Assembly: GCA_963835575.1 (NCBI GenBank) | Contig: CAWIGG010000006.1 | Location: 192,001 to 256,000, forward strand | From: an uncultured Spirochaetota bacterium | Lineage (GTDB): Bacteria; Spirochaetota; Brevinematia; Brevinematales; JAOACQ01 | Direction: 5' to 3' | Length of the DNA: 64,000 nt | Program-made: the position numbers and the translations under genes | Notes under the pieces: model-generated | Databases searched by the model: none | The model's input: the letters and a program-made list of their open reading frames with translations, nothing else | What the model was told of the DNA's origin: nothing | In this document: piece by piece, positions 46,821 to 53,458 of the stretch | How the letters are laid out: each line of letters starts with the position of its first letter | How positions within the stretch are numbered: the first letter of the stretch is position 1

Positions 46821-48746
46821 ATGAGTGAAAAAAGTTTTATTAACGGAATATTGAAAAAGGCCGGAGATATTTTTCAAAGTATTATCCCCGGCAGAAGGAC
46901 GAAGAAAGAAAAATTCCGAAAGGTGTTCTTCGGCCTGAGGATCCGGTTTCTCGCGCTTCTTTTTATATTCATGACGGCCATCATTTTTGTGCTGACCGTA
47001 GTGATGTTTTTAGACCAGAGAAGGATCCTCCAGCAGGAAAAAAATGAAAAGGCGGGGATTTTCACGCAGATCCTCGGCGGCCCTGCCGAATTTTACCTTG
47101 ACCGCGATATAAAGACCACGGCGCAGGACCTTAAGGTCAAGTATGAGATTATTGTCAAGGAAGCGGCCAATTTCAAGAGATATAATAATGATATCGAGCA
47201 GATCCTCCTTTCGGACAGAAATAAAAAGATTGTCTTCAGCGCGTCGTCCGCCGATGTCAGGACATACAGCGAGCTTCCGTTTATAAAAGACGCGCTTTCG
47301 CAGAAAAAGGAAAGCCTGACCTATTATGACTTTAAAATAAAAAAGAAAAATAAAAAAGAGGAGCGGTTCCGCGCCTTAACTTATCCCATCTTTCTTCATA
47401 ATGGAGAGCTTGTGGACGTCCTGGCGGATTATAAAAAATATTATCTCCCTTATGAGGCATCTGACAAAAGAAGGAAAAATGAGATTTACAGGATACTCTG
47501 GACGAAATATAAAGATAAACTCGGGAAAGATTTTGAGGCCGTAAAAAACACCGGCGGTAAAAAAGCCGCTAAGGAAACAACAGGCCAGGTGGTAAAAGCC
47601 GGCGATATAGATTTTCTCTTTTTAAAAGTCTTTTCAGAAGTCATGAAAGACCGGAAAGAGAGGATCCAGAAAGCGGACGAGGTACTGCTCGCCGGGAAAT
47701 GGCTCGAGTCCTTTAAAAAGGACAAGATCGACGCCTATAAAAACGACAAGGCGACAGAGGCCGGCGATATCCAGAAAAAGATCATGGAAGCGATGAGCAT
47801 GCTTTCGCAGGATCTGGATGACGCCAGGCTCCTGGGGGCCCTGTCCATCATTTTTAATGTGAACAGAATGGGCGAGGATATTGACAAGAATGTCACGACG
47901 GCCATGATCATCGCCGGTATTATTCTGGCGTTCAGCATTGTTGTTTCATTTTATGTTGTTAATTTCATGGTCAGGAACTTAAAGAAGCTTGAAAAATGGG
48001 CGCTGGAGGTCAGCGCGGGAAATATTGATAATAAAGTTGTCATAGAGCAGAGGGATGAGATCGGCAGGCTATCGGATATTTTTAATAACATGCTGGATGA
48101 GATAAAGATGAAATTCCACCTGGAGAAATATGTCTCCCAGTCCACGCGCTCCATGATAGAACAGCAGAAAGGCCGCGAAGAATTCCCGGTCCTCGGTAAA
48201 ACGGACAAGAAAAATCTCGCCTTCATATTTTCCGATGTGAGGGGATTCACTTCCTTCTCTGAAAAGAACCAGCCTGAAACGGTGATAGAGGTCCTGAACC
48301 TTTATTTTGAAATACAGGCAAGGATCATCAATAATAAAAAAGGCGATATCGACGATTATGTCGGCGACCAGATCATGGCGCATTTCAGCGGCGATAAAAA
48401 GGCCGACCTGGTGCTTTCGACGGCCGTTGAAATTATGAAGGAAGTTCAAAAATTCAATGAAGACCGCCAGAAGAAGAACCTTCCGTATTTCGAGATCGGC
48501 ATCGGGGTGCATGGAGGCGATGTTGTTGTCGGGAATATCGGCTCCGGGTTCAGGATGGACTTCAGCTGTATCGGCGACGCGGTGAACCTGGCCTCGCGGC
48601 TTTGTTCCGCCGCCGCGCCTGGCGAGATCCTTGTTTCAAAGGCCCTGTTTTCCCAGGCTCGCCAGTTTTACAGGACGCAGAAAGTGGAACCGATCGAGGT
48701 CAAAGGCAAAGAGAAAAAGATTGATATCGTCAGAGTATTGTTTTAA
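46821..48746 (+). CDS. Membrane class III adenylate/guanylate cyclase with HAMP domain
   Basis: Two TMs, RDEIGRL..FNNM, FSDVRGFT, VGDQIMA, IGDAVNLASRL. Confidence 0.92.
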   Translation: MSEKSFINGILKKAGDIFQSIIPGRRTKKEKFRKVFFGLRIRFLALLFIFMTAIIFVLTVVMFLDQRRILQQEKNEKAGIFTQILGGPAEFYLDRDIKTTAQDLKVKYEIIVKEAANFKRYNNDIEQILLSDRNKKIVFSASSADVRTYSELPFIKDALSQKKESLTYYDFKIKKKNKKEERFRALTYPIFLHNGELVDVLADYKKYYLPYEASDKRRKNEIYRILWTKYKDKLGKDFEAVKNTGGKKAAKETTGQVVKAGDIDFLFLKVFSEVMKDRKERIQKADEVLLAGKWLESFKKDKIDAYKNDKATEAGDIQKKIMEAMSMLSQDLDDARLLGALSIIFNVNRMGEDIDKNVTTAMIIAGIILAFSIVVSFYVVNFMVRNLKKLEKWALEVSAGNIDNKVVIEQRDEIGRLSDIFNNMLDEIKMKFHLEKYVSQSTRSMIEQQKGREEFPVLGKTDKKNLAFIFSDVRGFTSFSEKNQPETVIEVLNLYFEIQARIINNKKGDIDDYVGDQIMAHFSGDKKADLVLSTAVEIMKEVQKFNEDRQKKNLPYFEIGIGVHGGDVVVGNIGSGFRMDFSCIGDAVNLASRLCSAAAPGEILVSKALFSQARQFYRTQKVEPIEVKGKEKKIDIVRVLF

Positions 48747-48977
48747 TTTAAAGAGGACTTTTCTCTCAACAACAAGACACAAAGAACACGAAGAACCACC
48801 AACGGGGTAATCCGCGAATGCACACGAATGGACGCGAATGAGGGGAAATTAACAGGAAGATTGTTTTAGTTAAGTCAAGAAAAAAACAATCAAAATATTT
48901 AAAAAACCTCAGTAGTTCGATATAATAAAGGCGGAAGAAAATGGAGGTGTTGCTCGCGGAATATTTCCGCAGGGTTT

Positions 48978-50252
48978 CTAACCCACTTTTGCCACCCCGT
49001 TTTCTTCCATTTTCCTTATATTTTCAGACTCATAGTCCTTTAATATCCGAAATATCTTACGGACTAATGCTCTGGCAACCCTTTTATTCGCTTCGAGCCT
49101 GCTCATTCCATTTTTTATCAAATTCCTGTGCATGCCGGAAATATGGTGGTCCGGATTCCAGTGAACAAAGTTCTTGGCCGCGTTCATAAAGGCGTTTTTC
49201 AAACGGCGGTTATAATCGTGAGTATGTTTCATCTTCTTTCTTTCACCCCTATTTTTCTTTCCGGTTTCATCTTCCACCATACCGAATCCCGCATATAACG
49301 CCAGGCTGTCCTCTTTAACAAAACGATTGATATGAATAATCTCGGCTATCATCGTAGAGGCAGTGATCACGCCGATTCCTTTCAACCCATTGCCATTGGA
49401 TTCGTCATAGGCTAAAACCCGGACAGCTTCCCTGGATTCAGCCAGATTATCCAAAATCTTCTTCATTTCTTCCTTATGGCCTTTCAAAAGAATAATATTT
49501 TCAGCAGATTGCCGGATCATCATGGAAATGGGGCCCGCTACACCCAAGATTCTTTGGGCTATTACCTGTAAGCCGGCGATGGTCTTATCCCGGCCTCTAT
49601 AAGAGCCTCCACCCATCAGCTCTTTCATTTTCTCCGCACTTAATCTCCTCCATTGGCTTAAATCGGGACAATTACACAGCAAATTCAGTACTCCTGCGCT
49701 ATTCAAAACATTATGTCTGTTATCCGTCTCCATATTCTTGCCGCTTAAGAACAGGTAAACATCCGGGGAAGCCTCGCATAAAAGCTTCCACAGCCCGGAT
49801 ATTTCCTCTGTGATCCTGCCGCTTACACTTTCATATTTCCGGGTTATCGTCTGTAATTCGCTGTCAACAGGATAGACCCTTCTCCATTTTTCCAGAGAAC
49901 CGTTCATTTCACGCTCTAAAGCCAAAAGAGCGGCGGCATGAGCATCCTTTTCGTTGTTCTTTCCCGCCGGGAGCTGGCTTTTCCTCTTTTGTTCAACATC
50001 CCTTGCTTTAAACGAGTAATAGGTCATCGATTCCTTACGAAGCACTTTCTCTAAGGGCTTACTCTGCCCGTTGCTTCCCTCGATGGCGATAATCGGGTCA
50101 TTTTTCGACCGAGTCCATTCGATCAGATTATCAAGGCCGCTTGTGGTAACCGGAAAGGCTTTCCGTTCCGTTTTCCAGTCTTCCGCTTTGACATACATAC
50201 ACACATACTGTTGTGAATCGGGATCAATCCCGATAGCATCCCGGATTAGCAT
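48978..50252 (-). CDS. IS110-family recombinase/transposase
   Basis: IGID, AIEG, KNNEKDA RuvC-like N-terminus; GIGVITA..IAEI..I.RF...LA.YAG and NRRLK in the Tnp domain. Confidence 0.92.
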   Translation of the reverse strand: MLIRDAIGIDPDSQQYVCMYVKAEDWKTERKAFPVTTSGLDNLIEWTRSKNDPIIAIEGSNGQSKPLEKVLRKESMTYYSFKARDVEQKRKSQLPAGKNNEKDAHAAALLALEREMNGSLEKWRRVYPVDSELQTITRKYESVSGRITEEISGLWKLLCEASPDVYLFLSGKNMETDNRHNVLNSAGVLNLLCNCPDLSQWRRLSAEKMKELMGGGSYRGRDKTIAGLQVIAQRILGVAGPISMMIRQSAENIILLKGHKEEMKKILDNLAESREAVRVLAYDESNGNGLKGIGVITASTMIAEIIHINRFVKEDSLALYAGFGMVEDETGKKNRGERKKMKHTHDYNRRLKNAFMNAAKNFVHWNPDHHISGMHRNLIKNGMSRLEANKRVARALVRKIFRILKDYESENIRKMEENGVAKVG

Positions 50253-50278
50253 TTTTTCCTCCAGCAGATTAAAATATC

Positions 50279-50480
50279 AGACCGTTCCATTTCGGCACCC
50301 TTGTAATGAGCGACAGGATTATTCAAGGGAATATCCTGGCAATTGTTTTAAGAGACCAAAACGGTCCTTGTGGAGTTGGCAATCTTCCTGTGTGCCTTGG
50401 TTTCAAACCAGAAGGCAGGCGGGTAGTGAGCAACAACTTCCACAAGGAGGTATTCTACTGAAGAATTATTTTTTGTAAAC
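50279..50480 (-). ncRNA. Putative bridge RNA
   Basis: Two stem-loops with large internal loops whose segments match the target and donor sites (see findings); 5' end approximate. Confidence 0.85.
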
Positions 50481-50671
50481 TTTTTCTCCAAAATATAGCT
50501 TACAAGGCGGGAAGACACGAAGAACGGGGGTAAAGGGGTGGCTACGCCGGTAATACAGAGGATGTTGTTTGATAATCCTTTTTTGTTTTTATTAAAGCTG
50601 ATTTATAACCCCAATTGAACGCGGATGACGCGGATTAGGGCGGATAGTCGGCAGAGCCTGCCCTGAGCTTG

Positions 50672-50757
50672 CAGACTGTGTGAAAAGTCATCAAATTGTC
50701 ATCCCTCGACTCCGCTCGGGATGACAACACTTAAAACACGATTTTTCACTCAGTCTG
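50672..50757. mobile_element. 86-bp MITE with IS1182-type termini
   Basis: CAGACTGTGTGAAAA ... TTTTCACTCAGTCTG; duplication TTG; internal hairpin TGTCATCCC...GGGATGACA. Confidence 0.85.
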
Positions 50758-50967
50758 TTGTCGAAGGGCTCATCACAGGTTTATAGGATTTGGTTTTACT
50801 TAAATCTGCCTGTGTTGTTTTACTCTCTGCTTAATATGATATAGGACACTTGTGGGAGGGCGGGCTGCGCCCGGCGGACAGAAGAGTAAGCAGTAGTTTA
50901 TTTCTATGTTTTATTGGGGTTTAAATTCAAATATTTCGATTATAGTGTATGAAGGAGGAATATTGAA

Positions 50968-51468
50968 ATGTCATTCATTTTTAATGTAAATGAAATTGTT
51001 CTTAAGGAGAGAAAATCTCCTGTTCCGGAATTTACCTGGCATACAAGTGAAAAATTAGCCGAAATAACAAAATCTAAATACCTGGATTTCTACATTCGTT
51101 CTCTGGATCCGGATAAATTTTCTTATCCATATCATTTTCATCGAGATTCGGAAGAAATATTTGTCATATTAGCCGGTGAAGTCACCCTGAGAACTCCAAG
51201 AGGATTTCATACATTAAAGAGTGGGGACATTATCTTCTTTGAAACAGGACAGGACGGAGCTCATCAACTTTATAATCATACAGATAAATCTTGCCGGTAT
51301 TTGGATATTCGTACGGCTACTGGAATAGATGTTTGCGAATATCCGGATTCAGGGAAAATAAATATAATACCATATCAGGAAATTTATAAATCTAAAAATA
51401 AAGCTGATTATTATCAAGATGAAAATGATATCAGGAATAAATGGCCGAAAGAAATTCTCAAAGGTTGA
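50968..51468 (+). CDS. Cupin-domain protein
   Basis: PYHFHRDSEEIFVILAGE...GDIIFF...AHQLYN; DVCEYPDSGK; AAGGAGG RBS. Confidence 0.9.
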   Translation: MSFIFNVNEIVLKERKSPVPEFTWHTSEKLAEITKSKYLDFYIRSLDPDKFSYPYHFHRDSEEIFVILAGEVTLRTPRGFHTLKSGDIIFFETGQDGAHQLYNHTDKSCRYLDIRTATGIDVCEYPDSGKINIIPYQEIYKSKNKADYYQDENDIRNKWPKEILKG

Positions 51469-51592
51469 TCTTGATAAAGACTTCCCGTCTTCCTGTTAAC
51501 CCTTCACGCTTTTCCCAATTCGCGTCTATTCGCGTGTCTTAGCGGATTACCCCGTTGGTGGTCCTTAGTGCTCTTGGTGTTTTGGTGGTAAA

Positions 51593-52444
51593 CTACGAAA
51601 GCGCCTTAAACCATGCGGCTATGATGATCATAATAGAGGCGAGAACCAGAACGGTCTGTCCGACATGTCCGGGGACCTTCCGGTTTTTAAAGATAAATCC
51701 GGCCGCAAGGCCTATTATAAATCCGCAGCAGAGCCCGAAGAAATGCCCCATAAAATCCACATCGGCGCCGCTTCCGAATAATGACAGGAAGATTAGCGCG
51801 GCCGCAGCCGGCTGCCAGCTCCGCTTTCTCAGGGCCTGCGTCAGGCTTGCCATGCGGAAGGCGGCCAGGATCCCGAACGCGCCGAAAAGGGCCGTTGAGG
51901 CGCCGATGCTGTGGTATTCCATGGGATGAAGGTCCGCGTTTACTGTATTCCCGGCGATGCCGGAGAGTAGGGCCAGGAAAAGACCGAGGCCGGTCCCGGT
52001 CTGGGCGAAAAGGTTATAAAAAATGATCGATCCCATAAAGGCGTTTGAGAGAAAATGGACGATGTCGGCATGCAGGGTCAGGGCGGTCACGGCGCGCCAG
52101 ACAGCGCCCTTCTGAATGTCCAGGCTGGAAGAATCGCCCGAAGAAAGCCAGCTTTCAAAAACATGGGACTGGTATAAGAGTGTTTGAAAGAAAAATAAGA
52201 CGAGAAACAGCGTCAATACGGATATGAGCGGCGCGGTATACTTGGCGTCAATAACAGGGATCTCTTTATTCTCTTTTTCATAAAGTTTGATCTGCCGGAG
52301 CGCTTCTTTTTCAAAGTCTCCGCCGACTGTGATGTCCCATTTGTCCTCAACATTATCAAGAGTATGGGGGATATGCATGGCGGAGAGAACAAGGGACCAT
52401 TCGGAGGCTTTTTTCTTTTCCAGAGACTGCAGATCTATGCTCAT
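51593..52444 (-). CDS. Rhomboid-family intramembrane serine protease
   Basis: WR..TALTLH...H..SN, GASTA, D.MGHFFG. Confidence 0.9.
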   Translation of the reverse strand: MSIDLQSLEKKKASEWSLVLSAMHIPHTLDNVEDKWDITVGGDFEKEALRQIKLYEKENKEIPVIDAKYTAPLISVLTLFLVLFFFQTLLYQSHVFESWLSSGDSSSLDIQKGAVWRAVTALTLHADIVHFLSNAFMGSIIFYNLFAQTGTGLGLFLALLSGIAGNTVNADLHPMEYHSIGASTALFGAFGILAAFRMASLTQALRKRSWQPAAAALIFLSLFGSGADVDFMGHFFGLCCGFIIGLAAGFIFKNRKVPGHVGQTVLVLASIMIIIAAWFKALS

Positions 52445-52609
52445 CAGAATATCCTCTCAGTTATTTTCAGCGGTTAATTTATTTACTGATAGAATATAAT
52501 AAGGAACCCTTTTTTCTTCAAATACAATTGGCTTTATTAATTTCATATTCTTCCGATATTCTGAAAGAAGAATAATATTTGTTAGAGTCGTAATACATGG
52601 GAGGCGGAT

Positions 52610-53458
52610 ATGGTCAGAAGCATATTTACCGGCGCGAGCGGCATGATGGTCACGATGGAAGAAATGAACACGGTGGCCAATAACCTGGCAAATGTGAATA
52701 CGGACGGCTATAAACGGGAGACGACTGTGACAAAGGCGTTCCCCGAAATGCTGATCCGCCGCCTGAATGACGACGGCCAGGTCAAATTCCCCCTGGGGAG
52801 CTATGATCTTGCCCCTGTCGTTGGGAAGCTCGGGACCGGCGTCGAGTTTAACGAATCGTATATCCGATTCGAGCAGGGAAGTCTTCTCAATACAGGCAAC
52901 GATTTCGACATGGCGCTGGAAGGAGAAGGCTTCTTTTCGGTCATGACGGAAGAAGGGGAAAGATTTACGCGCAACGGCAACTTCAAGATAGATAAAGACG
53001 GCTTTCTGACCGATAGTCATGGCTTTAAGCTTGAAGGCGAGAAGGGTTTCATCCAGATCGCGCAGAACAACTTCCAGATCGATAAGGAAGGGAATATTTA
53101 TGTCAATCTTGATTACAGGCCGGAGGATTTTGTGGACAAGGCCGGCAATGAATGGAAAAACATGACGCTTGTCGACAAGCTTAAAATCGTGGATTTCCCC
53201 GAAAGACGCTACCTTCAGAAAGACGGCCGCACCCTGTATAAGGAAAGCGATTTTTCAGGGCCGGCCGCCATCGCGCAGGGGACGGAACGTCCGCAGGTCC
53301 TTCAGGGCGTATTGGAGAAATCCAATGTCGATCCGGTTATTGAGATGACAAGGATGATCGAAATAAACCGCCTCTATGAAGCCAACCAGCGGGTGATCCA
53401 GACGGCGGACAATACGCTGAACAAAACGGTCAACCAGGTGGGCAGAGGACTGGCGTAA
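52610..53458 (+). CDS. flgF: Flagellar basal-body rod protein (FlgF/FlgG family)
   Basis: ANNLANVNTDGYK, TGNDFDMALEGEGFF, TRNGNF, LEKSNV...YEANQ; FlgF versus FlgG not certain. Confidence 0.8.
   Translation: MVRSIFTGASGMMVTMEEMNTVANNLANVNTDGYKRETTVTKAFPEMLIRRLNDDGQVKFPLGSYDLAPVVGKLGTGVEFNESYIRFEQGSLLNTGNDFDMALEGEGFFSVMTEEGERFTRNGNFKIDKDGFLTDSHGFKLEGEKGFIQIAQNNFQIDKEGNIYVNLDYRPEDFVDKAGNEWKNMTLVDKLKIVDFPERRYLQKDGRTLYKESDFSGPAAIAQGTERPQVLQGVLEKSNVDPVIEMTRMIEINRLYEANQRVIQTADNTLNKTVNQVGRGLA

Follow-up and report, generated by a model that had tools for sequence, protein, structure and literature searches.

Bridge-RNA systems have been known as a class since 2024 (PMC11208160, PMC11208158). In IS621, S241 of the recombinase forms a 5'-phosphoserine, and D102 hydrogen-bonds to G242, steadying the loop (PMC11208158). 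The corresponding motif is SG in the IS110 group and either SG or TG in IS1111 transposases (PMC11187229), and STGG stands in the Tnp column in 12 rows of the tree table of Durrant et al. (PMC11208160). The bridge recombinases under development as genome editors come from a narrow IS621-like set.

The element described here lies in a window of 64,000 nucleotides (the whole stretch of DNA analysed, from an uncultured Spirochaetota bacterium; positions are numbered from its first letter). By its domains, ends and RNA it classes as a member of the IS110 group, and it appears to work like IS621. The published IS621 system has the same layout, guide code and CT core, and taken alone the bridge RNA is ordinary; the notable divergence is that of the enzyme. 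Very probably the element, of the IS110 group, moves through bridge-RNA-guided recombination, including a DNA link through Thr330 and an internal promoter serving excision.

The insertion sequence, 1,645 bp long, occupies 48860-50504 on the minus strand and is flanked by CT cores at 50505-50506 and 48858-48859; its ends are set by six genomic copies with differing flanks. Read on the minus strand, the left flank TTCCCGC is followed by the CT core and the element start TGTAAG (50504), and the element end AAACAAT (48860) by the CT core and the right flank TCCTGT. Comparison of the copies bore out the target and donor junctions that the first-pass annotation had reconstructed. In its own genome BLAST recovered the element six times in full, together with the 3' remnant of one relative at 86% DNA identity. 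Each full copy measures 1,645 bp between CT cores; the six differ at 0-3 positions, lie at six separate sites and all keep the 424-aa frame open. CT is present on both sides in 6/6 copies, and like IS621 the element inserts without a scar at its core. A search of the element for end-to-end inverted repeats of ≥ 14 nt gave none; the IS110 group has a short core and no long terminal inverted repeats. A relative was present in contigs of one of four DNA sequencing runs (1,635 aligned bases, 20 differences), and short contigs of the same run with other right flanks point to a close relative at other sites. As far as sequence can tell, these comparisons show that the element has recently spread within one intergenic repeat motif, six sites of which it occupies.

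The 3' remnant, left by a related Thr-type element (L092, C2:1329628-1330116), has a right flank unlike the target of the element in the window. Two of the six copies are interrupted, between bridge RNA and ribosome-binding site, by the same 1,675-bp IS1182-like element (C2:1643158-1644832, locus L091, and C5:162932 onward), which is present in 24 copies in the genome and has a 4-bp duplication. A 3.3-kb composite may have travelled whole, or the site may have been hit twice; the IS1182 prefers such sites, and the two interrupted IS110 copies differ at 3 positions.

The target motif is well defined by the copies. Its right flank reads TCCTGT in 6/6 (TCCTG at 48853-48857 in the window, minus strand), and its left flank (50507-50513, minus strand) reads TTCCCGT in four copies, TTCCCGC in the window copy and TTCCTGC in one. 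The five copies outside the window sit in the same motif, as would be expected if the earlier reading of the target was right. Empty copies of the motif number 24 in the genome, as against about 1.2 expected from a fourth-order model, and 23 of these lie outside ORFs of ≥ 150 aa, although such ORFs cover 82% of the genome.

Around the window copy, two arms of inverted short word repeats (48770-48839 and 51518-51587) bracket a cupin gene (50968-51468). The element landed in one arm of this bracket, and sequence search found an unoccupied motif copy in the other (51482-51495, plus strand). The motif is the inner word pair of the inverted arms (48770-48857 and 51482-51587). Whether target sites are directly linked to GxxExxY genes was also considered; nine such genes were found, none of them bracketed here, and a link was not established.

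The bridge RNA is predicted at 50281-50447 (minus strand; ends approximate), with a target-binding hairpin at 50366-50447 and a donor-binding hairpin at 50281-50365. A 178-nt stretch (50275-50452) folds into these two hairpins with z = -4.62, and none of 200 shuffles was equally stable. The apex of the first hairpin, earlier drawn with a 1-nt loop, instead folds into five pairs and a 3-nt loop, continued by a GCCUU/AAGGC stem. Among 20 hand-chosen leaders, both sides are changed in 14 of 33 predicted pairs, so the folding and covariance check proposed for this RNA gave both a fold and compensatory changes. The stem cells pair in 97% of cases, against ≤ 49.5% in slid controls, with a stem covariation of 0.302 (0.184 shuffled, ≤ 0.095 slid), in a structure derived from the same alignment. 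Rfam gave no match up to E 1 across 47000-53000, and the clade's own RNA profile matched only the six copies in the genome.

All four loop segments singled out in the first-pass annotation (50417-50425, 50384-50391, 50342-50350 and 50300-50306) read as it had claimed. The left target guide (50417-50425, minus strand, as are all RNA features) matches flank plus core at 8/9 positions in the window copy, the figure originally given, and at 7/9 in the other five, because left flanks differ among copies. The right target guide is best placed at 50384-50390 (core plus 5 nt); the eighth base of the complementarity first described (50391) does match in the window copy, but covariation is limited to 5 nt right of the core. 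The left donor guide (50341-50348) has seven matches and a U that could wobble with the bottom-strand G of the core. The TG observed here in place of CT had been read correctly; it is not damage but a conserved trait, the two columns being invariant across 20 aligned leaders. The right donor guide lies at 50300-50306. Two handshake dinucleotides are additional to the earlier reading, as is the unusual active site described below. AU in the target loop (50382-50383; A81/U82 in IS621) is complementary to donor positions 6-7, and the first G of the donor-loop GG (50298-50299) can pair with target position 7, which is C in two copies and T in four.

Whether guides follow their targets was examined in 90 gathered loci. 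With the window added, and without one presumed duplicate and four copies from the element's own genome, the set came to 86, of which 73 have a recognisable target loop; 55 of these have a left end and 54 a right end. One locus was kept per distinct guide (43 left, 39 right), and registers were set by a fixed rule, under which locus L088 was kept despite a wrong register. Left target guides match their own flanks at 210/301 letters (85.8 ± 8.6 when shuffled, maximum 117 in 10,000) and right target guides total 193 matches (shuffled maximum 105 in 10,000); as related loci are not independent, these comparisons are not probabilities. Matches at left positions 1-7 are 19, 24, 30, 31, 37, 33 and 36 of 43. 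On the right, positions 1-5 match in 37, 35, 34, 33 and 33 of 39 (172/195), whereas positions 6 and 7 match in 11 and 10, against about 8 by chance. Only the 5 nt right of the core thus co-vary with the right target guide. With covariation this far above the shuffles, the matches between target guides and flanks are not due to chance. In one locus, L001 (1327-1335), the right guide is a full match, but the left target guide agrees with its own flank at only 5/9 positions and more closely with a neighbouring repeat word.

It is highly improbable that the leader matches are chance or a by-product and that the protein itself recognises the repeat motif or its structure. The guides are short, in four of the six copies the left guide has two mismatches, a host repeat serves as the target, and structure-aided target choice has been reported for ISPpu10 (10.64898/2026.03.19.712850). 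Set against this are the 43 distinct left and 39 distinct right guides that track their own flanks, at totals (210 and 193) beyond the largest of 10,000 shuffles (117 and 105).

The donor side co-varies too, on the strength of a few variant loci: the right guide CTACAAG goes with the element start TGTAGG in 7/7 such loci, and two loci with altered left-donor letters have the same alteration in the guide. In most homologues guide and donor disagree at left positions 6-7, which fits the tolerance reported for IS621 at position 7 (PMC11208160). The target-loop handshake pair fits in 51/54 loci (AT with donor AT in 49, AA with TT in two; three are not fully paired) but hardly varies, and for the donor-loop handshake base, pairing with target position 7 is seen in only 31/55. 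The bridge RNA is almost certainly real on this evidence. Two-loop fold, guide-flank covariation and CT in 6/6 copies all agree with the earlier proposal of an IS621-type bispecific bridge RNA. The guides, which co-vary with target sites in homologues, also favour its view of a divergent RNA-guided system with a readable guide code.

The recombinase (424 aa; 48978-50252, minus strand) scores above the Pfam cut-off for both the RuvC-like domain PF01548 and PF02371, aligns by profile to IS621 and is within the 300-460 aa range of the family. Its score with NCBIfam NF033542 is 102 against a cut-off of 140, which a close relative passes with 143. An AlphaFold2 model (pLDDT 90.8) has its best matches in IS621 and ISCro4 (Z 23.9, rmsd 3.6, 293 aligned). 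The predicted proteins of the window and of the 80% relative L012 end about 30-50 aa earlier than most homologues (window 48978-49060); the longer homologue tails show low conservation and run over the right end.

Homologue columns place the active site at D10 (50223-50225), E58 (50079-50081), N100 (49953-49955), D103 (49944-49946) and T330 (49263-49265), all on the minus strand. The tetrad therefore reads D-E-N-D rather than DEDD, and Thr330 stands where the G--P----SG loop has its catalytic Ser. In the clade profile, which is ungapped at both motifs, N100 falls on D102 and T330 on S241 of IS621; a single-sequence alignment to IS621 agrees for the Tnp loop but is shifted at D102. Of the 215 homologues listed, the best 120 all have D10, E58 and N100, and 119 have D103; position 330 is Thr in 116 of them and Ser in four. 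Since dN/dS is 0.053 against L012, this reads as an enzyme under purifying selection, with Thr and Asn shown by the alignments at the places of Ser241 and Asp102 of IS621.

At position 330, the 90 loci have 76 Thr and 9 Ser, with 5 not called. In the 86 loci examined all four Thr codons are in use (ACG 30, ACC 24, ACA 14, ACT 5), and Ser is encoded by AGC (7) and AGT (2), AGY being one step from Thr. A FastTree phylogeny of 75 proteins (63 full-length of 150, plus 12 others), built with the two columns dropped and rooted at the midpoint, unites all 43 Asn proteins, 37 with Thr and six with Ser, in a single branch (support 100). The Ser rows in this clade need at least four separate changes; the order of Thr and Ser changes on a midpoint-rooted tree is suggestive only. 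Outside the Asn branch, 7/32 rows have Thr with Asp. These seven (P0211, P0243, P0245, P0249, P0251, P0255 and P0261) make up another group, in which Thr is combined with an intact DEDD.

Two candidate novelties were rejected. Thr at the nucleophile position is not unreported, given the SG or TG stated for IS1111 (PMC11187229) and the rows of the Durrant table (PMC11208160). Nor is Asn unique to the Thr/Asn clade: rows 7, 78 and 83 of that table have Asn there, and it consequently marks a variant and not exclusion from the IS110 family.

Mutation of D102 or S241 abolishes recombination in IS621 (PMC11208158), and substitutions at catalytic positions are depleted in a scan of IS622 (10.1101/2025.05.14.653916), both of which count against reading Thr and Asn as a working site. 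The Thr/Asn enzyme might be dead or weak and the element moved in trans by a Ser-bearing host IS110 recombinase, and the genome does have four other IS110 loci, at least two of them with Asp and Ser motifs. These belong to unrelated and very distant lineages (23-26% identity over short stretches), and the RNA profile of the clade has no hits beyond the six copies. Thr and Asn are fixed over a deep clade under purifying selection, and clade members lie at their own guide-matched sites in many metagenomes. Mobilisation in trans is therefore very unlikely.

A different objection concerns the chemistry itself. Threonine is a hindered secondary alcohol. With the third acidic residue also lost, the loop around Thr330 could serve only to position DNA, with cleavage by water or direct strand transfer at the DEND centre; TasR, a structural relative, is described as DNA-cleaving (PMC12045711). 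Against such a role, the column alternates only between the hydroxyl residues (Thr in 116, Ser in four of the best 120 of 215 homologues), several separate Ser lineages lie inside the clade, and insertion leaves no scar at the core, like that of IS621. A bridge system in which Thr330 is not the covalent nucleophile is thus unlikely. Ser directly precedes Thr in 81/116 Thr proteins and is absent there in 35, and it is missing from the whole loop in 23/116. The window protein is one with an E-T-G loop, in which T330 is the only Ser, Thr or Tyr between residues 321 and 343; having no serine in its loop, it is the cleanest test case for threonine chemistry. Probably a deep and widespread IS110-group clade recombines via a covalent phosphothreonine at a rebuilt D-E-N-D/T site.

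Following IS621, the ends of the element would join into a circle, completing a promoter, and the leader RNA would bind a recombinase tetramer. The target loop would open the repeat motif and the donor loop the circle junction, top strands being cut beside the core and exchanged with the help of the handshake bases before the Holliday junction is resolved. From the Thr/Asn clade itself come the suggestions that Thr330 makes the covalent DNA link as a 5'-phosphothreonine, that D10, E58 and D103 hold Mg2+ and that Asn100 takes over the loop-steadying role of Asp102. By analogy, Asn could retain the hydrogen bond made by D102. Once the element is integrated, its bridge RNA for excision would come from an internal promoter. 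For IS621, routes by single-strand copy-out and by half-match have been proposed (10.64898/2026.08.31.748434); for this reason cut-out is not assumed, and excision may be a single-stranded copy-out instead.

Joined ends were not found in the genome of the element by a pattern search. Contigs from four DNA sequencing runs gave no joint either, which says nothing for or against circles. They occur in 2/90 loci: L039 (2628-2646), at a contig end, and L058 (1581-1600), followed by unrelated DNA. Both have a right end next to left-end-like sequence, which may be read as a circle, a tandem or an insertion into a donor-like site.

The promoter expected to be completed across the circle junction has its -35 half (TTGACT) at 48873-48878 and its -10 half at 50497-50502 (both minus strand), 17 nt apart once the ends join. 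TTGAC lies 19 nt before the core in 59/63 right ends, suggesting a junction promoter of fixed spacing, as in IS621. A second, internal promoter-like site (50452-50479, minus strand; 10/12 match) stands directly before the bridge RNA, and its -35-like word is at a fixed offset before the RNA in 52/69 leaders, from which we infer that it may feed the bridge RNA. A promoter scan of the window region alone gave 5 matches against 3.1 in shuffles, which is not above shuffles. Because integrated IS621 depends on read-through (PMC13626964), a dedicated, conserved internal promoter would be a difference from it.

Just before the internal promoter-like site, 50/57 homologue left ends (for example L011, L017 and L030) have a 9-mer that we take to be DnaA-box-like (2.8 when shuffled, maximum 12). 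It is absent from a short-leader subgroup comprising the window, L001 and L012. Expression of the bridge RNA is possibly tied to replication through this 9-mer.

Part of the interest for specialists is that a Thr/Asn active site occurs in a deep and recently active clade. The clade offers a distant scaffold with guide rules read from natural sequences: 5 nt for the right target guide, latitude at positions 1-2 and 7 on the left, and a wobble at the donor core. We know of no recombinase with a proven phosphothreonine intermediate, and a literature search gave none. If the phosphothreonine reading is true, it would be a third covalent chemistry beside those of serine and tyrosine recombinases, here with over 40 guide variants found in nature, on a scaffold different from that of IS621. 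A Thr nucleophile would also revise the claim that IS110 enzymes need serine, explain the long-noted TG variants of IS1111 elements and mean that filters requiring DEDD and Ser discard active enzymes.

Threonine chemistry was not discussed in the literature found, figure logos and bioRxiv supplements (72 orthologues, the IS622 scan) lying outside its scope. The word threonine is absent from the main texts of PMC11208160, 10.1101/2024.06.21.599552, 10.1101/2025.05.14.653916, 10.1101/2025.10.25.684509, PMC12045711, PMC13604230 and PMC11187229. One listed member of the clade is the Spirochaetota row 617 in Supplementary Table 1 of Durrant et al. (PMC11208160), with the same D-P-D start, N at the third position and an S-T-G loop; it has no ISfinder name, and the parts of the source searched gave no comment or RNA for it. 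The motif of the IS1111 group, GL-P----S(t)G, allows Thr at the nucleophile position, as here (PMC11187229), but STG motifs retain a Ser beside the Thr, whereas the window protein has E-T-G. IS1111 elements carry their RNA (seekRNA) downstream of the gene; here it is upstream, and no IS1111-type sub-terminal inverted repeats were found in a search for repeats of ≥ 14 nt.

Set beside the reference structures of IS621 and ISCro4/IS622 (PDB 8wt6, 8wt9 and 9t56), the modelled enzyme has the same RuvC, coiled-coil and Tnp fold, and the element has the same left-end two-loop RNA with LTG, RTG, LDG and RDG, CT core, 9-nt LTG and 8-nt LDG; the left donor guide of IS621 also pairs over only 8 nt (PMC11208158). 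As candidate handshake bases, A-U and G (donor A6/T7, target G6/C7) follow IS621, and at the level of sequence the junction promoter and the insertion into an intergenic repeat are shared with IS621 and ISCro4. Differences from IS621 and ISCro4 lie in the identity (14-18% in the structure alignment, 424 aa here against 326 aa), the sequence of the RNA scaffold, a contiguous right donor guide and the 5' stem-loop before the target loop, which is not seen here. Beyond the core, 5 nt of the right target guide pair, against 2 in wild-type IS621 (G77-G80; PMC11208158). As read from its sequence, the element departs from a literal DEDD and Ser, both variable in the family's own alignments, with Thr for Ser241 and Asn for Asp102 of IS621.
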